From a virus (lineage: Duplodnaviria > Heunggongvirae > Uroviricota > Caudoviricetes): a DNA stretch of 42,406 nt. The position numbers were made by a program, and so were the translations under genes. Shown piece by piece: positions 1-42,406 of this stretch. Every line of letters starts with the position of its first letter. Position 1 is the stretch's first letter. The stretch is from positions 1-42,406 of the IMG/VR virus record IMGVR_UViG_2663762841_000006; one strand, 5' to 3'. The notes beneath the pieces are model-generated. The model had not been told where the DNA came from and searched no databases. It saw only the letters and a list, made by a program, of their open reading frames with translations.

Positions 1-870
1 TTGCTTGACAGCTTCACCGAAAAAATGGCGCGAAATTTTCATTTCGAATATGGAACAGCGCGCGCCTGGGGATCTTTTGGCTATGCTATTGGCGCGTTCT
101 TTGCCGGCATATTTTTTAGTATCAGTCCCCATATCAACTTCTGGTTGGTCTCGCTATTTGGCGCTGTATTTATGATGATCAACATGTGTTTTAAAGATAA
201 GGATCACCAGTGCGTAGCGGCGGATGCGGGAGGGGTAAAAAAAGAGGATTTTATCGCAGTTTTCAAGGATCGAAACTTCTGGGTTTTCGTCATATTTATT
301 GTGGGGACGTGGTCTTTCTATAACATTTTTGATCAACAACTTTTTCCTGTCTTTTATGCAGGTTTATTCGAATCACACGATGTAGGAACGCGCCTGTATG
401 GTTATCTCAACTCATTCCAGGTGGTACTCGAAGCGCTATGCATGGCGATTATTCCTTTCTTTGTGAATCGGGTAGGGCCAAAAAATGCATTACTTATCGG
501 TGTTGTGATTATGGCGTTGCGTATCCTTTCCTGCGCGCTGTTCGTTAACCCCTGGATTATTTCATTAGTGAAGCTGTTACATGCTATTGAGGTTCCACTT
601 TGTGTCATATCCGTCTTCAAATACAGCGTGGCAAATTTTGATAAGCGCCTGTCGTCGACGATCTTTCTGATTGGTTTTCAAATTGCCAGTTCGCTTGGGA
701 TTGTGCTGCTTTCAACGCCGACTGGGATACTCTTTGACCACGCAGGCTACCAGACAGTTTTCTTCGCAATTTCGGGTATTGTCTGCCTGATGTTGCTATT
801 TGGCATTTTCTTCTTGAGTAAAAAACGCGAGCAAATAGTTATGGAAACGCCTGTACCTTCAGCAATATAG
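1..870 (+). CDS. cscB: LacY-family oligosaccharide:H+ symporter (MFS), C-terminal 289 codons only; 5' end outside window; probably sucrose permease CscB-like
   Basis: ORF open from window edge; translation aligns by eye with the C-terminal half of LacY (EKMARNFHFEYGTARAWG ~ EKVSRRSNFEFGRARMFG; YNIFDQQL ~ YDVFDQQF; GPKNALLI ~ GGKNALLL; LHAIEVPL ~ LHMFEVPF). Symbol is an inference from family plus argW-adjacent context. Confidence 0.7.
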   Translation: MLDSFTEKMARNFHFEYGTARAWGSFGYAIGAFFAGIFFSISPHINFWLVSLFGAVFMMINMCFKDKDHQCVAADAGGVKKEDFIAVFKDRNFWVFVIFIVGTWSFYNIFDQQLFPVFYAGLFESHDVGTRLYGYLNSFQVVLEALCMAIIPFFVNRVGPKNALLIGVVIMALRILSCALFVNPWIISLVKLLHAIEVPLCVISVFKYSVANFDKRLSSTIFLIGFQIASSLGIVLLSTPTGILFDHAGYQTVFFAISGIVCLMLLFGIFFLSKKREQIVMETPVPSAI

Positions 871-3621: not shown

Positions 3622-3918
3622 TCAGTCATTACTGATAGCGCCATAGCGTGAGCGGTAATTACGCAGGCGCGGGTCGATATATTCAGGGAAGTGGGTATAT
3701 ATGGATTTGCGGAATGGTCGGATTGATGTTTCGTTTATTCGGTCTTTTTCCTGTTTTTCTGCGAGTTGTATATCGCGTCGGTACTTCCGTTCTTCTTTTG
3801 TTTCCGGTGGCAGAGCAAGAAACGCGTCGAGATTATTCTTGATATTTTCCAGCACCTCCGATATGGAATTGCCGGAACAGCGGCGCGGGTCGTCCGCACC
3901 ATATAGAGGCGCTGGCAT
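3622..3918 (-). CDS. hypothetical early protein, 98 aa
   Basis: AGGAG RBS before ATG; tightly packed in the early-left operon. Confidence 0.45.
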
Positions 3919-6261: not shown

Positions 6262-6420
6262 TTATGGCGATACCAGAGAGCTTTCTGCGTGTACATGCGT
6301 CTCTGTAACTTGCTCTCCTTCACTGTGGTTGCAAGTGACATGAATATCTCCTTCGTTACCGATTAATTCTTTCATCTGACGAATGAATTCTTCGTCTGAC
6401 CAGTTATCTGTAAAACTCAT
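6262..6420 (-). CDS. small hypothetical protein, 52 aa (below the ORF-track cutoff)
   Basis: Manual translation MSFTDNWSDEEFIRQMKELIGNEGDIH...; start overlaps the stop of the upstream Kil-like ORF (ATGA). Confidence 0.3.
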   Translation of the reverse strand: MSFTDNWSDEEFIRQMKELIGNEGDIHVTCNHSEGEQVTETHVHAESSLVSP

Positions 6421-13707: not shown

Positions 13708-13880
13708 GACGACAGCGACGAAGTATCACCGACATAATCTGCGAAAACTGCAAATACCTTCCAACGAAGCGCTCCAGAAACAAACGCAAGCCAATCCCAA
13801 AAGAATCTGACGTAAAAACCTTCAATTATACGGCTCACCTGTGGGATATCCGGTGGCTAAGACATCGTGCGAGGAAATGA
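13704..13880 (+). CDS. ninD: NinD-like small protein, 58 aa
   Basis: Manual translation [32 protein letters not shown]...; AGGAGG RBS; ATGA overlap with ninB stop; identity to lambda NinD recalled but not verified. Confidence 0.45.
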
Positions 13881-13882
13881 CG

Positions 13883-14827
13883 ATGACTGCGTATTACAAC
13901 GAAATAGATCCGTATGCAGCGCAATGGCTGCGTAACTTAATTGACGCTGGAGAAATTGCCCCCGGTTATGTAGATGAAAGGAGTATTGAAGATGTCACAC
14001 CAGGTGATTTGCGAGGATTTACCCAGCACCACTTTTTTGCAGGAATCGGAGTTTGGAGCTATGCACTTAGAAAAGCAGGATGGCCAGACAACAAGAGTAT
14101 CTGGACAGGAAGTTGCCCATGCCAACCTTTCAGCTCGGCAGGCAAAGGAAAAGGGGTTGATGACGAGCGGCACTTATGGCCGGCATTCTTCTGGCTTATT
14201 GAAAAATGCAATCCTGGCATCGTTATTGGCGAACAGGTTGCAAGCGCAGACGGCCTCGCTTGGCTCGACCTTGTACAAACTGACTTGGAAGGTGCGAACT
14301 ACACCTCTGCAGGTACCGATATTTGCGCTGCGGGCTTCGGTTCTCCGCACATCAGGCAGCGATTGTATTGGGTGGCCTACTCCAACGACAAATATCAACT
14401 TTCAGCCAGAGACACGCAGGGGAATTCAGAACCTATCTGGATGCGTGAGACTAGCGGGATGGCAAACTCCTTTAGCGAACGATGCAACAGGTTCAACGCA
14501 TTGCTACAGCGGAAAAGACAAGAGCGGAACCCCAAGAATCTGCTTGAAACTTCCCGGGACGGTGAAGCTATGTACCCATTACCGGTTAACGGCTTCTGGA
14601 GAGATGCAGACTGGCTTTACTGTAGAGATGAAAAATATCGTCCAGTTAGACCCGGCTCATTCCCGATGGTTAATGGCATTGCCAAAAGCTTGGGACGAGG
14701 CAAGTCCACACTGGGAAGAATGGCAAAGCGCAATCAAGATCAGCGAATTATTGGATATGGAAACGCAATCAATGCAGAAGTAGCAACGGCATTCGTGAAA
14801 GTTTGTATGGAGGTTGTTAATGCTTAG
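13883..14827 (+). CDS. DNA (cytosine-5)-methyltransferase, orphan (no cognate nuclease gene seen)
   Basis: Motif I FFAGIG, motif IV PCQPFSSAG, motif VI-like GEQV, motif VIII QRLYWVAY, motif X GNAI; start chosen at second ATG for RBS spacing. Confidence 0.75.
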   Translation: MTAYYNEIDPYAAQWLRNLIDAGEIAPGYVDERSIEDVTPGDLRGFTQHHFFAGIGVWSYALRKAGWPDNKSIWTGSCPCQPFSSAGKGKGVDDERHLWPAFFWLIEKCNPGIVIGEQVASADGLAWLDLVQTDLEGANYTSAGTDICAAGFGSPHIRQRLYWVAYSNDKYQLSARDTQGNSEPIWMRETSGMANSFSERCNRFNALLQRKRQERNPKNLLETSRDGEAMYPLPVNGFWRDADWLYCRDEKYRPVRPGSFPMVNGIAKSLGRGKSTLGRMAKRNQDQRIIGYGNAINAEVATAFVKVCMEVVNA

Positions 14828-15803: not shown

Positions 15804-16446
15804 TGGCAGCAAATACCGAAATATTTGGGTAGTTGGCGACCTGCACGGATGCTACACGAACCTGATGAACAAACTGGATACGATTGGATTCGACACCCAA
15901 AAAGACCTGCTTATCTCGGTTGGCGATTTGGTCGATCGCGGTGCAGAGAACGTCGAATGCCTGGAATTAATCACATTCCCCTGGTTCAGAGCTGTACGTG
16001 GAAACCATGAGCAAATGATGATTGATGGCTTATCAGAGCGTGGAAACGTCAATCACTGGCTGTTTAATGGCGGTGGCTGGTTCTTTAATCTCGATTACGA
16101 CAAAGAAATTCTGGCTAAAGCTCTTGCCCATAAAGCAGATGAACTTCCGTTAATCATCGAACTGGTGAGCAAAGGTAAAAAATATGTCATCTGCCACGCC
16201 GATTATCCTTGTGATAAATACGAGTTTGGAAAGCCAGTTGATCATCAGCAGGTAATCTGGAACCGCGAACGAATCAGCAACTCACAAGACGGGTTCGTGA
16301 AAGAAATCAAAGGCGCGGACACGTTCATCTTTGGTCATACGCCAGCAGTGAAACCACTCAAGTTTGCCAACCAGATGTATATCGATACCGGCGCAGTGTT
16401 CTGCGGAAACCTCACATTGATTCAGGTACAGGGAGAAGGCGCATGA
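15781..16446 (+). CDS. ninI: Ser/Thr protein phosphatase NinI (lambda PPase)
   Basis: Metallophosphatase motifs GDLHG, GDLVDRG, GNHE; start at MRYYEK, so track start 15706 rejected. Confidence 0.9.
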
Positions 16447-17066
16447 GACTCGAAAGCGTAGCTAAATTTCATTCGCCAAAAAGCCCGATGATGAGCGACT
16501 CACCACGGGCTACGGCTTCTGACTCTCTTTCCGGTGCTGATGTGATGGCTGCTATGGGGATGGCGCAATCACAAGCCGGATTCGGTATGGCTGCATTCTG
16601 TGGTAAGCATGAACTCAGCCAGAACGACAAACAAAAGGCTATCAACTATCTGATGCAATTTGCATACAAGGTATCGGGGAAATACCGTGGTGTGGCAAAG
16701 CTTGAAGGAAATACTAAGGCAAAGGTACTGCAAGTGCTCGCAACATTCGCTTATGCGGATTATTGCCGTAGTGCCGCGACGCCGGGCGCAAGATGCAGAG
16801 ATTGCCACGGTACAGGCCGTGCGGTTGATATAGCAAAAACAGAGCAGTGGGGGAGAGTTGTTGAGAAAGAATGCGGAAGATGCAAAGGTGTCGGCTATTC
16901 AAGGATGCCAGCAAGCGCAGCATATCGCGCTGTGACGATGCTAATCCCAAACCTTACCCAACCCACCTGGTCACGCACTGTTAAGCCGCTGTATGACGCT
17001 CTGGTGGTGCAATGCCACAAGGAAGAGTCAATCGCAGACAACATTTTGAACGCGGTCACACGTTAG
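16443..17066 (+). CDS. Q: late-gene antiterminator Q
   Basis: 207 aa; zinc-finger CRDCHGTG...CGRCKG; appears near-identical to lambda Q as recalled. Confidence 0.9.
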
Positions 17067-17108
17067 CAGCATGATTGCCACGGATGGCAACATATTAACG
17101 GCATGATA

Positions 17109-17137
17109 TTGACTTTTTGAATAAAGTTGGGTAAATT
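17109..17137 (+). promoter_or_regulatory. late promoter PR' (-35 TTGACT, -10 TAAATT) with overlapping qut region
   Basis: Hexamers read directly; sequence from here to tR' matches the lambda PR'/6S RNA region as recalled. Confidence 0.7.
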
Positions 17138-17279
17138 TGACCCAACGATGGGTTAATTCGCTCGTTGTGGTAGTGAGATGAAAAGAGGCGGCGCTTACTA
17201 CCGATTCCGCCTAGTTGGTCACTTCGACGTATCGTCTGGAACTCCAACCATCGCAGGCTGAGAGGTCTGCAAATGCAAT

Positions 17280-17337
17280 CCCGAAACAGTTCGCAGGTAA
17301 TAGTTAGAGCCTGCATAACGGTTTCGGGATTTTTTAT
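17280..17337 (+). terminator. tR' terminator (end of the short 6S-type leader transcript)
   Basis: Stem cccgaaac...gtttcggg followed by attttttat. Confidence 0.7.
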
Positions 17338-17339
17338 TT

Positions 17340-17414
17340 GGGTCAGTCGTATAAAGGTCATTACGGAAGGCTGTTAACCTTCTTATCGTGGTTCGAGTCC
17401 ACGCTGCCCCTCCA
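17340..17414 (+). tRNA. tRNA with GUU anticodon (Asn-type), 75 nt, one U4-C69 mismatch in acceptor stem
   Basis: Manual cloverleaf fold: acceptor gggtcag/ctgcccc, anticodon stem gaagg/ccttc, loop cuGUUaa, T-arm cgtgg-ttcgagt-ccacg, encoded CCA. Confidence 0.6.
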
Positions 17415-17419
17415 AATAT

Positions 17420-17495
17420 GCTGGTTTAGCTCCAATGGTAGAGCAGTCGCCTTGTAAGCGAATGGGTAGCGGTTCAAGTCCGTTAACCAGCACCA
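17420..17495 (+). tRNA. tRNA with UGU anticodon (Thr-type), 76 nt
   Basis: Manual fold: acceptor gctggtt/aaccagc perfect, D-stem gctc/gagc, anticodon loop cuUGUaa, T-arm agcgg-ttcaagt-ccgtt, encoded CCA. Confidence 0.65.
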
Positions 17496-17613
17496 TTACT
17501 GAGCCGTAGCCACTGGCTATTCTGAATTCATCAGTGATAGTTATGCTGCGGCCTTCTTTTTTCCCCTTCCCAATATAAGAACTACGCAATCCGTTACTGG
17601 CGGAGGCGTTGCT

Positions 17614-17829
17614 ATGAAATCAATGGACAAAATCTCAACTGGCATTGCCTACGGAACATCCGCTGGTAGTGCGGGATACTGGTTTTTACAGTGGTTGGAT
17701 CAGGTCAGTCCATCACAGTGGGCTGCGATTGGGGTGCTTGGAAGCCTTGTGTTGGGTTTTCTCACCTATCTGACAAATCTGTATTTCAAAATCAGAGAAG
17801 ACAGAAGAAAGGCTGCGAGAGGTGAATAA
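17614..17829 (+). CDS. S: class II pinholin (phage 21 S21-type), dual-start MKSMDK
   Basis: 71 aa with two TM segments; sequence matches phage 21 S21 as recalled. Confidence 0.85.
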
Positions 17830-18326
17830 TGCCTCCATCATTACGAAAAGCCGTTGCTGCGGCTATTGGTGGCGGGGCTATTGCTATAGCATCTGTGTTA
17901 ATCACTGGCCCAAGTGGTAACGATGGTCTGGAAGGCGTCAGCTACATACCATATAAAGATATCGTTGGTGTATGGACTGTATGTTACGGGCACACCGGAA
18001 AAGACATTATGCTCGGTAAAACGTATACCGAAGCAGAATGCAAAGCCCTCCTGAATAAAGACCTTGCCACTGTCGCCAGACAAATTAACCCGTACATCAA
18101 AGTCGATATACCGGAAACAACGCGTGGCGCTCTTTACTCGTTCGTCTACAACGTGGGGGCTGGCAATTTCAGAACATCGACGCTTCTTCGCAAAATAAAC
18201 CAGGGTGATATCAAAGGCGCATGTGACCAGCTACGTCGCTGGACATACGCTGGCGGTAAGCAATGGAAAGGGCTGATGACCCGTCGTGATATTGAGCGTG
18301 AAGTCTGTTTGTGGGGGCAGCAATGA
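17829..18326 (+). CDS. R: SAR endolysin (lysozyme with N-terminal signal-anchor-release helix)
   Basis: 165 aa; Gly/Ala-rich weakly hydrophobic N-terminus then lysozyme-like domain; overlaps holin stop (TAATG). Confidence 0.85.
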
Positions 18327-18766
18327 GCAGGAGCAGGGTAACCGCGATTATTTCCGCTCTGGTTATCTGCATCATCGTTTGCCTGTCATGGGCTGTTAAT
18401 CATTACCGTGATAACGCCATGATCTACAAAGAGCAGCGCGATAAGGCCGCATCCACAATCGCTGACATGCAGAAGCGTCAACGTGATGTAGCGGAACTCG
18501 ACGCCAGATACACAAAGGAGCTTGCTGATGCTAACGAGACTATCGAAAGCCTCCGTGCTGATGTTTCTGCTGGTCGTAAGCGCCTGCAAGTCGCCGCCAC
18601 CTGTGCAAAGTCAACGGCCGGAGCCAGCAGCATGGGCGATGGAGAAAGCCCAAGACTTACAGCAGATGCTGAACTCAATTATTACCGTCTCCGAAGTGGA
18701 ATCGACAAGATAACCGCGCAGGTTAACTACCTGCAGGAGTACATCAGGACGCAATGCCTTCGATGA
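18323..18766 (+). CDS. Rz: Rz i-spanin
   Basis: N-terminal TM helix plus coiled-coil periplasmic domain; similar to lambda Rz as recalled. Confidence 0.85.
18522..18713 (+). CDS. Rz1: Rz1 o-spanin lipoprotein, embedded in the +1 frame of Rz
   Basis: Lipobox LVVSAC, Pro-rich mature region; wholly nested in Rz. Confidence 0.8.
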
Positions 18767-35688: not shown

Positions 35689-35862
35689 ATGATAGTCAAG
35701 TCAGACGCACCAAAGTACCCTTTGCGCATCCCATTAGAGGTTAAGTTAGCAATCGAGAAGTCAGCGAAAGAAAATGGTCGCTCAATAAATACCGAGATGG
35801 TAATGCGGTTAGTGGATAGTTTAAGGCGGGATAGTTCTAAAGGTAATCTAGCAAAAAGTTGA
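35689..35862 (+). CDS. arc: Arc-like ribbon-helix-helix repressor
   Basis: 57 aa from ATG with GGAGG RBS; [18 protein letters not shown] resembles P22 Arc (ENGRSVNSEIYQRVMESF). Confidence 0.7.
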
Positions 35863-35924
35863 AGCCCCAACTGCGGGAACAGTCAGGGCTTCGGTATCAA
35901 CAAATCGGATTAGGAAATATTGAC

Positions 35925-36803
35925 ATGAAAAGTATAGCAAAGGCACAAAACGATTTCACCATCTTCAAATTCGGCGACAGTGAAATCCGCGTCATCAACA
36001 AATGCGGTGAGCCGTGGTTTGTAGCAAAAGATGTTTGTGATGCTTTAACCCTGACTAACTCACGCAAGGCGCTTACTGCACTTGATGACGATGAAAAGGG
36101 AGTAACTTTAAGTTACACCCTTGGTGGTGAGCAGAATCTAAGCATTGTTAGCGAATCAGGTATGTATACATTGGTTCTGCGCTGCCGCGATGCTGTCAAT
36201 AAAGGTTCGGTCCCGCACAAATTCCGCAAGTGGGTAACAGCAGAAGTTCTGCCTTCAATTCGCAAACATGGCGAGTATGTGAAAGGCAAGAAAACCACTG
36301 TTGAGGAAAGAACACCGCTACGCGATGCAGTAAACATGCTGGTAGGAAAGAAAGGACTTCGCTATGACGATGCATACAATATGGTTCATCAGCGTTTTGG
36401 TATTGACAGCATTGATGAACTTTCAATTGAACAAATCCCGCTGGCCGTAGAGTACATCCACAGGGTAGTGCTTGAAGGTGAATTCATCGGAAAACAAGAG
36501 AAGAAAACTGATGAGCTTTCTGCAAAAGAAGCAAACAGCCTTGTATGGTTATGGGATTATGCCAACCGCTCACAGGCATTATTCCGCGAACTGTATCCGG
36601 CGCTAAAACAAATTCAATCGAACTATTCCGGCAGATGCTACGACTACGGTCATGAGTTCTCGTATGTTATCGGAATGGCGAGAGACGTTTTAATCAATCA
36701 CACACGAGATGTTGATATTAATGAGCCAGACGGACCAACGAATCTTTCCGCATGGATGAGACTTAAGAATAAAGAATTACCTCCTTCAGTACATAACTAC
36801 TGA
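35925..36803 (+). CDS. ant: antirepressor Ant (BRO-N-type N-terminal domain)
   Basis: 292 aa from ATG 35925; follows arc; Bro-N-like N-terminus; terminator downstream. Confidence 0.7.
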
Positions 36804-40004: not shown

Positions 40005-41198
40005 TTAATCAACCTTCCCATCAAGCCAGTCTGCCCACCACTGCATCATTTCTCTGCGTTTGTCGAGATACTGAGCATGGTTGTAAATTCCACGCACAGA
40101 ACCGCCGTTGGCATGTGCCAGTTGCACTTCAATAGCATCAGCGGGCCATTCGTGCTCGTTCATAATCGTGCTGAATTCATGCCTGAATCCGTGACCGCTT
40201 TCCAGACCCTCATAGCCGATTTGTTTGATCACAAGCAATACCGCGTTCTCGCAGATTGGCTTCTTCTTATCGTTGCGCCCGGCAAAAACAAACTCTGATA
40301 CTGGTTTGGTGATTGAGCTTAGCGTAGTGAGAAGTTCAACCACCTGGTCCGACATCGGGACCACATGAATTTTGCGGCCCTTCATCACACTGGCGTCGAT
40401 GGTGATAATCCTGTTTTCAAAATCGACGTTCTTCCATAGCATGGAACGAAGCTCTTTCGTTCTTAGGGCAGTGTAGCGTAAAACTTTGGTCGCAATGAGC
40501 GATACGATACTTCCTGAAAATGTTGCAAGTGCTTTGTTGAATGCCGGGATCTGGTCGGCAGGTAAAAACGGGAAGTTCTTCTTGCGGTATCCCTTCATGG
40601 CGTCAGCAAGGTCAGGTGCCGGGTTATATTTAGCCCTACCAGTGACAATAGCGTAACGGAAAACCTCGCCGCATCTTCTGCGGGCTTTGTTGGCTCGCTC
40701 CATTGCACCGCGATCTTCAAATCTGCGGATTACTTCCAGCAGTTGCATCGGCTCAATATCCTGAATTTCAAGGCCGCCGATGATAGGTAAAATGTCGTCA
40801 TCAAACATTTTTGCAAGTTCATTTGCATAGCCTACTGACCAGACTTGCTTCTTGTGCTCGTACCATTCCTTGTAAATGGCGCTAAAGGAATTGTTGTTAG
40901 ACGAAGCCTTTTTCGCTTTTACCGGATCGATGCCAACCGAGATGTCTTTCCTCGCGGTCCATGCTTTATCCCTTGCCTCCTGCAAAGTCATAAGCGGATA
41001 TTTTCCGACGGTCAGGATTTTCTCCTTACCGTCAATCTTGTAGCGAAGCTGCCATACCTTTTTCCCTGATACAGGGACATAAAGGTACAGGCCATTACCA
41101 TCGAGTAGGCGGTATGGTTTTTCTTTCGGCTTTGCTGCTTCAATCTGCTTAACGGTGAGCATGGGTAAAAATCCGGTGGGTAAAATTATTTTATCCAC
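40005..41198 (-). CDS. intS: tyrosine integrase, IntS (CPS-53/KpLE1)-like, P4-type
   Basis: 397 aa; C-terminal catalytic region (HGFRHEFST...HA...RGIYNHAQY); adjacent to argW; true start may be ATG at 41162 (MLTVKQIE). Confidence 0.85.
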   Translation of the reverse strand: MDKIILPTGFLPMLTVKQIEAAKPKEKPYRLLDGNGLYLYVPVSGKKVWQLRYKIDGKEKILTVGKYPLMTLQEARDKAWTARKDISVGIDPVKAKKASSNNNSFSAIYKEWYEHKKQVWSVGYANELAKMFDDDILPIIGGLEIQDIEPMQLLEVIRRFEDRGAMERANKARRRCGEVFRYAIVTGRAKYNPAPDLADAMKGYRKKNFPFLPADQIPAFNKALATFSGSIVSLIATKVLRYTALRTKELRSMLWKNVDFENRIITIDASVMKGRKIHVVPMSDQVVELLTTLSSITKPVSEFVFAGRNDKKKPICENAVLLVIKQIGYEGLESGHGFRHEFSTIMNEHEWPADAIEVQLAHANGGSVRGIYNHAQYLDKRREMMQWWADWLDGKVD

Positions 41199-41323: not shown

Positions 41324-41398
41324 TGGTGTCCCCTGCAGGAATCGAACCTGCAATTAGCCCTTAGGAGGGGCTCGTTATATCCATTTAACTAAGAGGAC
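41324..41398 (-). tRNA. argW: tRNA-Arg (anticodon CCU), intact; 3' end forms the prophage att core
   Basis: 75-nt cloverleaf read from the reverse complement, ending GGGGACACCA; anticodon loop cuCCUaa. Confidence 0.9.
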
Positions 41399-41473: not shown

Positions 41474-42406
41474 TTATGCCGGGTTTTTATCATTTTTCTT
41501 AATGTTTTCCGCACGTTCTGCTTTTTGGCGTGCTTCTGCTTTACGCTTGTTGCTCATGTCGTTACGAATCTGTGCATGACTCATTAACGCGAAGATAAAG
41601 GTGCCGCCGCAGATGTTCCCCGCTAAAGTAGGTAGTGCGAAGGGCCAGATGAAATCGCTCCAGTGCAGCGTACCGTTAAACACCAGATAGAGGATTTCAA
41701 CAGAACCGACCACGATATGGGTGGTGTCACCCAGGGCAATAAGCCAGGTCATCAATATAATCACCACAATCTTTGCCGCACCTGCTGCAGGAAACATCCA
41801 TACCATAGTGGCGATCAGCCAGCCGGAAATGATCGCGTTGGCAAACATCTCGCTGGGGGTGTTCTTCATCACATCCATGCCGATTTTGACAAATGCATCG
41901 CGAGTTTCTTCATTGAAGATAGGCATATATTCAAATGCCCATGCAGCAATACCTGTCCCGAGAATATTACCCAGCAGCACGACGCCCCATAATCGCATAA
42001 GTAAGCCGACGTTGCTCATTGTCGGTTTTTGCATGACGGGTAGTACCGCAGTCACGGTGTTTTCGGTAAATAATTGCTGGCGGGCCATAATGACGATAAT
42101 AAAACCAAAGGTATAACCGAGATTCTCCAGTAAGAAGCTGCCCGGCACACCTTCCAGTTCGACATGAAATATCCCTTTTGCCAGTAACGAAGCGCCCATC
42201 GACAGACCCGCCGCAATGGCTGACCACAGTAGCGCCATTGCGTCGCGTTCCAGCTCTTTTTCACCATCCTGGCGGATATGCTCATGAATTGCCATCGCCC
42301 GGGAGGGGAGTCGGTCTTCATCTATTTCTATTTTTTTGCCGCGCTCTTTTTCTTCGCTCTCAACTTCAATTTCGTCGCTGTGTTGATCAATTTTGTCGTT
42401 GTCCAT
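41474..42406 (-). CDS. yfdC: formate/nitrite transporter (FNT) family inner-membrane protein YfdC
   Basis: 310 aa polytopic membrane protein; known argW neighbour in E. coli; ORF start coincides with the window end. Confidence 0.8.
   Translation of the reverse strand: MDNDKIDQHSDEIEVESEEKERGKKIEIDEDRLPSRAMAIHEHIRQDGEKELERDAMALLWSAIAAGLSMGASLLAKGIFHVELEGVPGSFLLENLGYTFGFIIVIMARQQLFTENTVTAVLPVMQKPTMSNVGLLMRLWGVVLLGNILGTGIAAWAFEYMPIFNEETRDAFVKIGMDVMKNTPSEMFANAIISGWLIATMVWMFPAAGAAKIVVIILMTWLIALGDTTHIVVGSVEILYLVFNGTLHWSDFIWPFALPTLAGNICGGTFIFALMSHAQIRNDMSNKRKAEARQKAERAENIKKNDKNPA

Follow-up and report, generated by a model that had tools for sequence, protein, structure and literature searches.

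A known lambdoid late-operon tRNA-Asn/tRNA-Thr cassette in a P22-like prophage and its probable role in replacing a nuclease-sensitive host tRNA

Introduction

Why should a temperate phage place two tRNA genes, of Asn(GUU) and Thr(UGU) type, directly between its late terminator and its lysis genes? The question is raised by a stretch of 42,406 nucleotides (IMG/VR record IMGVR_UViG_2663762841_000006; hereafter the window), which is an integrated P22-like prophage and a mosaic of HK620, Sf6, IME10 and vB_EcoP-683R2 sequences. The arrangement itself is already known: the Asn/Thr tRNA cassette of lambdoid late operons is widely annotated, with the tandem pair annotated or described in phages 21, Sf6, SfI, HK446, Kapi1, mEp506 and several Salmonella phages, and found in 368 of 5426 complete E. 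coli genomes. The explanation that we favor, and hold to be probable though well short of assured, is that the window carries a copy of this cassette in which tRNA-Thr is both a resistant replacement for the host tRNA thrU and a supply of ACA-decoding capacity, with tRNA-Asn playing an analogous part that is probably weakened here.

The prophage is recognizable as integrated from an intact tRNA-Arg(CCU) gene (41324-41398, minus strand; ARAGORN and Rfam, 63.4 bits) adjoining the integrase gene (40005-41198, minus strand), and from LacY-family and FNT-family transporter genes at the ends of the window (1-870, plus strand, and 41474-42406, minus strand), which are host flanks. The attachment site is probably of the argW type. 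Its P22 character is evident in an immI region of the sar/ant type, which combines an antirepressor-like gene with Bro-N and P22_AR_C domains (35859-36803, plus strand) and, across the start of that gene, a sar antisense RNA (35857-35923, minus strand; Rfam RF00262, 71.6 bits). In the nin region, 5' of NinG, a phosphatase and Q, lies a gene for a protein with a cytosine-C5 DNA methylase domain (13841-14827, plus strand), which may be an anti-restriction moron.

The tRNA genes and their late-operon setting

The pair consists of genuine phage tRNA genes, tRNA-Asn(GUU) at 17340-17414 and tRNA-Thr(UGU) at 17420-17495, both on the plus strand and both with an encoded CCA. ARAGORN calls three tRNAs in the whole window, these two and tRNA-Arg(CCU). 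Rfam model RF00005, with a gathering score of 29, scores tRNA-Asn at 53.6 bits (E 6.6e-9) and tRNA-Thr at 61.5 bits (E 4.6e-11). Each has a cloverleaf as its minimum-free-energy fold, and each shows the hallmarks of an elongator tRNA of this family: a 7-bp acceptor stem, a D arm, a 7-nt anticodon loop with U33, and a T arm with GTTCRA. The anticodon arm reads GAAGG-CUGUUAA-CCUUC in tRNA-Asn and GUCGC-CUUGUAA-GCGAA in tRNA-Thr, the latter with a G27.A43 mismatch; tRNA-Asn has mismatches of its own at U4.C69, in the acceptor stem, and at U13.U22. An initial annotation of this DNA had described a GUU Asn-type and a UGU Thr-type gene, a U-C mismatch in the acceptor stem of the first, and a lambda-like PR'/tR' sequence ending at 17337 ahead of the tRNAs and the lysis cassette. 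As an observation, it is confirmed in all details.

Upstream of the pair, a lambda-type late antiterminator gene Q (16443-17066, plus strand; PF03589 Antiterm, E 3.3e-56) is followed by the late promoter PR' (17109-17137, plus strand; TTGACT-17-TAAATT), inside a block homologous to lambda PR', and then by the terminator tR' (17278-17339, plus strand), which both folding and lambda homology identify as a hairpin at 17278-17330 followed by UUUUUUAUUU. The lambda Q-PR'-tR' segment (J02459 44443-44781) matches the window with 97.9% DNA identity, and the homology stops at window position 17337. The tR' hairpin is very stable, at -25.5 kcal/mol (z -6.7; none of 200 shuffled sequences did as well), and its U-tract, TTTTTTATTT, abuts G1 of tRNA-Asn with no spacer. 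Downstream, a phage-21-type lysis cassette (17614-18766, plus strand; PF04971, PF00959 and phage 21 annotation) comprises a pinholin S21 gene with the P21-type holin domain PF04971 (17614-17829), a SAR endolysin gene of the lysozyme family PF00959 (17829-18326) and Rz (18311-18766), all on the plus strand, and at the DNA level matches phage 21 and SfI with 97% identity.

Between the tRNAs and the lysis genes lies a second long hairpin (17503-17552; -24.8 kcal/mol, z -4.8) followed by CUUCUUUUUU, the whole block (17503-17562, plus strand) being terminator-like here. The block is kept in lambda, which is without tRNAs (about 551-601 of the piece compared), in phage 21, and in nearly all of 119 IMG/VR copies of the cassette (a sample defined as contigs that contain the tRNA-Asn 3' end), with the U-run after the hairpin confined to S21-type contexts. 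Its role may be to terminate late transcription a second time, or it may mark a site of RNA processing.

How, then, would the tRNAs be made? Within 16400-18400, a promoter scan gave PR' as the sole promoter-like site on the plus strand, with none in the interval from PR' to the tRNAs. A tRNA promoter in the 6S-like leader was ruled out, since the best site in a looser scan of the leader matched only 8 of 12 positions and had a poor -10 element. Because there is no other credible promoter and no spacer between tR' and the tRNAs, their transcription must come from PR'. The likely route is Q-dependent read-through: both tRNAs would ride on the PR' transcript, directly 3' of tR', and would be made once Q lets RNA polymerase pass the terminator, after which RNase P would free their 5' ends and ordinary 3' trimming would halt at the encoded CCA. 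For phage L, the tRNA expression mode has been described as unknown (PMC8022706). The initial annotation had these genes transcribed only under Q antitermination, and this "only" overstates the dependence on Q. In lambda and Stx phages, PR' shows constitutive activity (PMC7547250). More speculatively, the second hairpin and its U-run might confine Q-independent read-through to the tRNAs.

A parallel had also been drawn with the tRNAs of Stx-type phages, and in position it stands, since these too lie just 3' of tR' in the late region. It fails in the tRNA species, those of Stx phages being ileZ, argN and argO, unlike the GUU and UGU anticodons found here. It fails equally in the promoter, for a separate one has been mapped between tR' and the tRNAs of an Stx2 phage (PMC7547250), and the window, with neither a promoter-like site nor any tR'-tRNA spacer, has no room for it.

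Distribution among lambdoid phages

The order seen here, Asn(GUU) and then Thr(UGU) right after the tR' U-tract and 5' of lysis genes, is that of the known lambdoid cassette. All 119 IMG/VR copies have in common the junction TTTTTTATTT/GGGTCAG, and the terminator upstream is either of the 21/P22 type or a lambda-type tR'. Among these contigs, two types of Q and two of holin accompany the cassette in free combination, so that it behaves as an independent mosaic module; some relatives have only one of the two tRNAs. In lambda, alignment finds the same conserved flanks, with the tRNA slot between them filled by an unrelated block some 160 nt long. A decayed tRNA was considered for this block and ruled out, since only the flanks align and Rfam at E<=10 gives no match.

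Several characterized phages provide closer comparisons. Phage 21 (OL657228 39591-39746) has the same gene order, the same 5-nt spacing and the same slot between tR' and S21, and its tRNA-Thr is 100% identical to that of the window; in contrast to the window, the Q21, PR' and terminator that precede the pair are those of phage 21 itself, and its tRNA-Asn has U69/G73 where the window has C69/U73. HK446 (NC_019714 35097-35252) resembles the window in its lambda-type Q-PR'-tR' upstream (98% identity) and in the presence of Gp33 and Abc2, and its 156-nt pair differs at two positions, both in tRNA-Asn (98.7% identity), with tRNA-Thr identical. It is unlike the window in that it is an HK97-like siphovirus, has a holin of the lambda type and encodes the Old inhibitor Oad2. 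The HK446 interval also includes the Asn gene; the RefSeq record annotates no tRNAs, and a preprint on this phage (bioRxiv 10.64898/2026.07.10.737580) states a single tRNA.

Tandem tRNAs 3' of a Q-type gene are likewise reported for Sf6, SfI, ST64T and L (PMC3636060, PMC8022706, PMC2629481). The SfI paper notes the pair in Sf6, ST64T, PS3 and p21 (PMC3636060), and the phage L paper records P22 as without tRNA genes and Sf6 as having Asn and Thr tRNAs at that position (PMC8022706). L and ST64T differ from the window in that their second gene is a 72-nt derivative annotated as Leu(UAA), for which ARAGORN makes no call. This second "tRNA" (in phage L, 1281-1352 of the piece compared) has GCTGGTT, the acceptor strand on the 5' side, in common with the Thr gene. 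On visual inspection, a hairpin of 5 bp closed by a loop of 4 nt takes up its anticodon region; from its sequence it looks like a degenerate or derived Thr gene.

Codon usage and nuclease resistance

tRNA-Thr(UGU) decodes ACA, for which the host has one tRNA, thrU. The 18 late genes of the window contain 21.6 ACA per 1000 codons (35% of Thr codons), compared with 13.5 (31%) in the early genes and 5.4 (10%) in a sample of 42 E. coli K-12 genes that served as the host codon reference. ACA is the top Thr codon of the late genes, 4-fold over the K-12 sample (Fisher p 3e-23). Asn codons stand at 53, 47 and 37.6 per 1000 in the same three sets, so that the compensation of late-gene codon usage proposed in the initial annotation holds for Thr and is only weak, at 1.4-fold, for Asn. 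It is this heavy use of ACA that exposes the phage to harm when thrU is lost, and supplementation and counter-defence are on that account compatible: they work through one shared tRNA supply.

Unbeknown to the initial annotation, counter-defence activity has been shown by experiment for exactly this tRNA-Thr. The window sequence is 100% identical to the copies in phage 21 and HK446, and it is the molecule termed tRNAThr21, because phage 21 has one tRNA-Thr and the features reported for it, a shorter anticodon stem and C28U/G42A (PMC12445682), agree. Govande et al. (2025) found that tRNAThr21 protects cells from P2 Old and resists cleavage in vitro, and that phage Thr(UGU) tRNAs replace the host tRNA, with no shielding of it (PMC12445682). 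An independent preprint of July 2026 reports strong counter-defence by the HK446 tRNA-Thr(UGU), with which HK97, HK542 and Bas34 again form plaques on Old+ cells (bioRxiv 10.64898/2026.07.10.737580). Both the resistance and the rescue were obtained with tRNA of identical sequence expressed from plasmids instead of a late operon (PMC12445682; bioRxiv 10.64898/2026.07.10.737580).

The features that define the Old-resistant class (tRNAThr21 and tRNAThr6; PMC12445682) are all present in the window tRNA-Thr, namely a UGU anticodon, an altered CNG at 28-30/40-42 and a 27:43 mismatch. Where host thrU has CUG/CAG it has UCG/CGA, and where host asnT has CGG/CCG the window tRNA-Asn has AAG/CUU, so that neither phage tRNA contains a CNG motif. 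A second nuclease, AriB of the PARIS system, has host Thr(UGU) as an efficiently cut substrate and Asn(GUU) as a secondary one, the cut falling at U36AAUC/N41; changes at 39 and 41 block this cleavage, and other distal contacts also matter (PMC12409363). Positions 36-41 are UAAGCG in the window tRNA-Thr and UAACCU in its tRNA-Asn, against UAAUCA and UAAUCC in the host counterparts, and to judge by sequence alone both have a cleavage context of the AriB-resistant kind. Neutralizing the PARIS system studied required Lys(UUU) along with Thr(UGU), with or without Asn(GUU) (PMC12409363). ARAGORN finds no tRNA-Lys(UUU) in the window, which is thus without the full anti-PARIS set.

In the mechanism that we propose, thrU would be lost because P2 Old, a Toprim tRNase, cleaves it in preference to other tRNAs and PARIS AriB has it among its prime targets. 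The phage tRNA-Thr, in which G27.A43 shortens the anticodon stem to 4 bp, neither strand contains a CNG, and U39/A41 are exchanged for G39/G41, would by these features persist once the host tRNA is destroyed, and would also raise ACA decoding capacity. In its common form, tRNA-Asn would parallel tRNA-Thr, plausibly standing in for a host tRNA that these nucleases attack secondarily and itself resisting them; host asnT is among the host tRNAs that Old cleaves more slowly than tRNA-ThrU.

The phage itself is predicted to trigger Old and yet to be without a known protein inhibitor. This prediction follows from a homologue of HK446/HK75 Gp33, a reported P2 Old trigger, at 6265-6420 (minus strand; tblastn, 88% over 52 aa, E 5e-29), and from tblastn finding no Oad2 (HK446 gp27) homologue in the window at E<=1e-3. 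The early-left operon also encodes a P22-type Abc2 (3622-3918, minus strand), a protein that failed to trigger Old, and a Pfam scan found no Gam family among its 10 early-left ORFs.

There are, nevertheless, limits to a counter-defence reading, among them the presence of Abc2 in place of Gam, the missing tRNA-Lys(UUU) and an Asn allele that has lost G73. The genes for N, the Gp33-like protein and Q contain two, two and four ACA codons, respectively, so ACA decoding is needed before Q can act, and expression of a late cassette may come too late for counter-defence. A single viral Thr(UGU) tRNA rescued neither lambda nor Old toxicity in recB-deficient cells, Asn(GUU) falls outside the five preferred Old targets, and the authors of that work doubt that the HK446 tRNA is primarily anti-Old (bioRxiv 10.64898/2026.07.10.737580).

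The Asn allele

The tRNA-Asn of the window is a rare allele, with U4.C69 and discriminator U73, and differs from the allele of phages 21, L and HK446 only at positions 69 (U to C) and 73 (G to U). From the acceptor-stem mismatch the initial annotation had suspected a variant or pseudo-tRNA. The mismatch is a poor guide, however, because 4:69 is U.U in 116 of the 119 IMG/VR copies, and a mismatch there is the family norm; Klebsiella phage Mulock retains it too, with compensatory changes at 6:67 and 7:66. The truly odd feature, overlooked at that stage, is the discriminator. G73 is found in phages 21, L, HK446, Mulock, P1, N4 and T5, in a T4-like phage and in host asnT, and it belongs, with the anticodon bases G34, U35 and U36, to the identity set of E. 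coli AsnRS (PMC9976931). The window copy retains the GUU anticodon and has U73.

With this identity element lost, the window tRNA-Asn is probably poorly charged and would be a weakened copy; that it is poorly charged while giving no sign of being dead is to our minds an even call. Equally balanced is the stronger reading that the allele is decaying or non-functional, effectively a pseudo-tRNA beside a tRNA-Thr that still functions. The deviation from G73 in every relative compared and in the host, in an identity set of discriminator plus anticodon (PMC9976931), speaks for decay, as does the rarity of C69/U73, which is found in 1 of 119 IMG/VR copies and is matched exactly by 2 of 374 E. coli records. 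The IMG/VR copies also include an intermediate, C69/G73, and relatives that keep one tRNA only point the same way. Against decay stand a score of 53.6 bits, the cloverleaf fold and the retained CCA, together with the occurrence of the same C69/U73 allele in a lambda-like prophage of strain VCSW7, where it accompanies a different Q type and has thus persisted and moved.

Alternative explanations

The replacement reading must be set against others that dispense with defence or make it the sole purpose. In pure codon supplementation, the tRNAs would simply top up scarce host tRNAs, and the anticodon-stem differences would be neutral divergence. The codon figures agree with this to the extent of a 4-fold excess of ACA and a 1.4-fold excess of Asn codons in the late genes over the host sample, the same argument has been made for SfI (PMC3636060) and phage L (PMC8022706), and the late-operon slot coincides with synthesis of ACA-rich structural proteins. 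The Asn enrichment is nonetheless weak, and the SfI authors, who reported the ACA bias, found none for Asn and termed the significance of the Asn tRNA unclear (PMC3636060). The cassette, moreover, travels with unrelated structural modules, of siphovirus, myovirus-type (SfI) and podovirus kinds, and the identical Thr sequence bears a two-factor resistance signature and resists Old experimentally (PMC12445682), so that we regard supplementation by itself as unlikely. No better placed is the opposite extreme, a doubtful proposal in which the pair would be a dedicated cassette against Toprim nucleases (Old and PARIS AriB), convergent in lambdoids, P1 and N4, acting here as the only anti-Old device and trickle-expressed through read-through from PR' without lysis. 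Trickle expression is possible because the cassette is bracketed by tR' and the second terminator-like hairpin, and if true, such expression from a constitutive PR' would remove the difficulty of timing.

Other readings place the function outside translation altogether. Since no spacer separates tRNA-Asn from the U-tract of tR' and the pair is followed by a conserved hairpin, the tRNAs might act as RNA-processing punctuation, the RNase P cut splitting the 6S-like leader from the late mRNA and setting the 5' end and stability of the latter. We consider this very improbable, because lambda and most lambdoid phages are without the tRNAs yet have the same flanking blocks, because anticodon, identity elements and CCA are conserved, and because the acceptor-stem compensation in the Mulock tRNA-Asn maintains the cloverleaf, the last two points arguing for selection on tRNA function. 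Still less credible, and in our analysis ruled out, are the suggestions that the tRNAs are decoys that titrate tRNA-targeting nucleases, as raised in the initial annotation and as a possibility elsewhere (PMC12409363), or that they compensate for a host tRNA gene broken by integration, as raised for HK446 (bioRxiv 10.64898/2026.07.10.737580). Northern blots in two studies found host tRNA-ThrU equally degraded in the presence of the resistant phage tRNA, which replaces it (PMC12445682; bioRxiv 10.64898/2026.07.10.737580). As for compensation, the prophage adjoins an intact tRNA-Arg(CCU) gene and no Thr(UGU) or Asn gene, and the HK446 site is thrW-like according to its record, thrW being different from thrU, the host UGU tRNA.

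Implications and related arrays

The replacement reading makes the cassette an illustration of how temperate phages protect late protein synthesis, given that ACA decoding hangs on one low-abundance host tRNA, and that no fewer than two defence nucleases carried by prophages or satellites, P2 Old and PARIS AriB, destroy it. That tRNA-Thr replaces thrU is already published for the identical molecule. What is added here is a rationale for its long-unexplained Asn partner, as a secondary target of the same nucleases that comes without their cleavage motifs; the finding that HK446 also carries the Asn gene; and a natural Asn allele lacking G73, usable to gauge selection on this partner. The remaining points, namely the rare U73 Asn allele, the HK446 Asn gene and the genotype with Gp33 present and Oad2 absent, are minor.

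Comparable tRNAs occur in less closely related phages. T5, whose Lys, Thr and Asn tRNAs together neutralize PARIS, resembles the window in having nuclease-resistant forms of both Thr(UGU) and Asn(GUU) with changes near positions 39-41, and is unlike it in being virulent, in having about 25 tRNAs that include the essential Lys(UUU), and in tRNA sequences only some 60-65% identical to those of the window. Two unrelated coliphages with few tRNAs also carry these species: P1 has Asn(GUU) and Thr(UGU) adjacent (225-378 of the piece compared), and N4 has an Asn-Ser-Thr array (137-386 of the piece compared). P1 and N4 share one Asn lineage, which differs from the lambdoid lineage; in the comparison of these Asn lineages, the closest among the sequences compared was reported to be the tRNA-Asn of a T4-like phage.

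The slot itself can hold other arrays. In Klebsiella phage Mulock the cassette is expanded to Asn-Phe-Thr-Arg at the same position (1201-1520 of the piece compared). Eight IMG/VR contigs have Asn(GUU) followed by a Thr-like chimera, for which ARAGORN makes no call and whose 3' half and anticodon arm are like those of host thrU. In seven of these eight contigs, the chimera is followed by a tRNA-Gly(UCC), Gly(UCC) being another preferred Old target (bioRxiv 10.64898/2026.07.10.737580), and then by a clean terminator.
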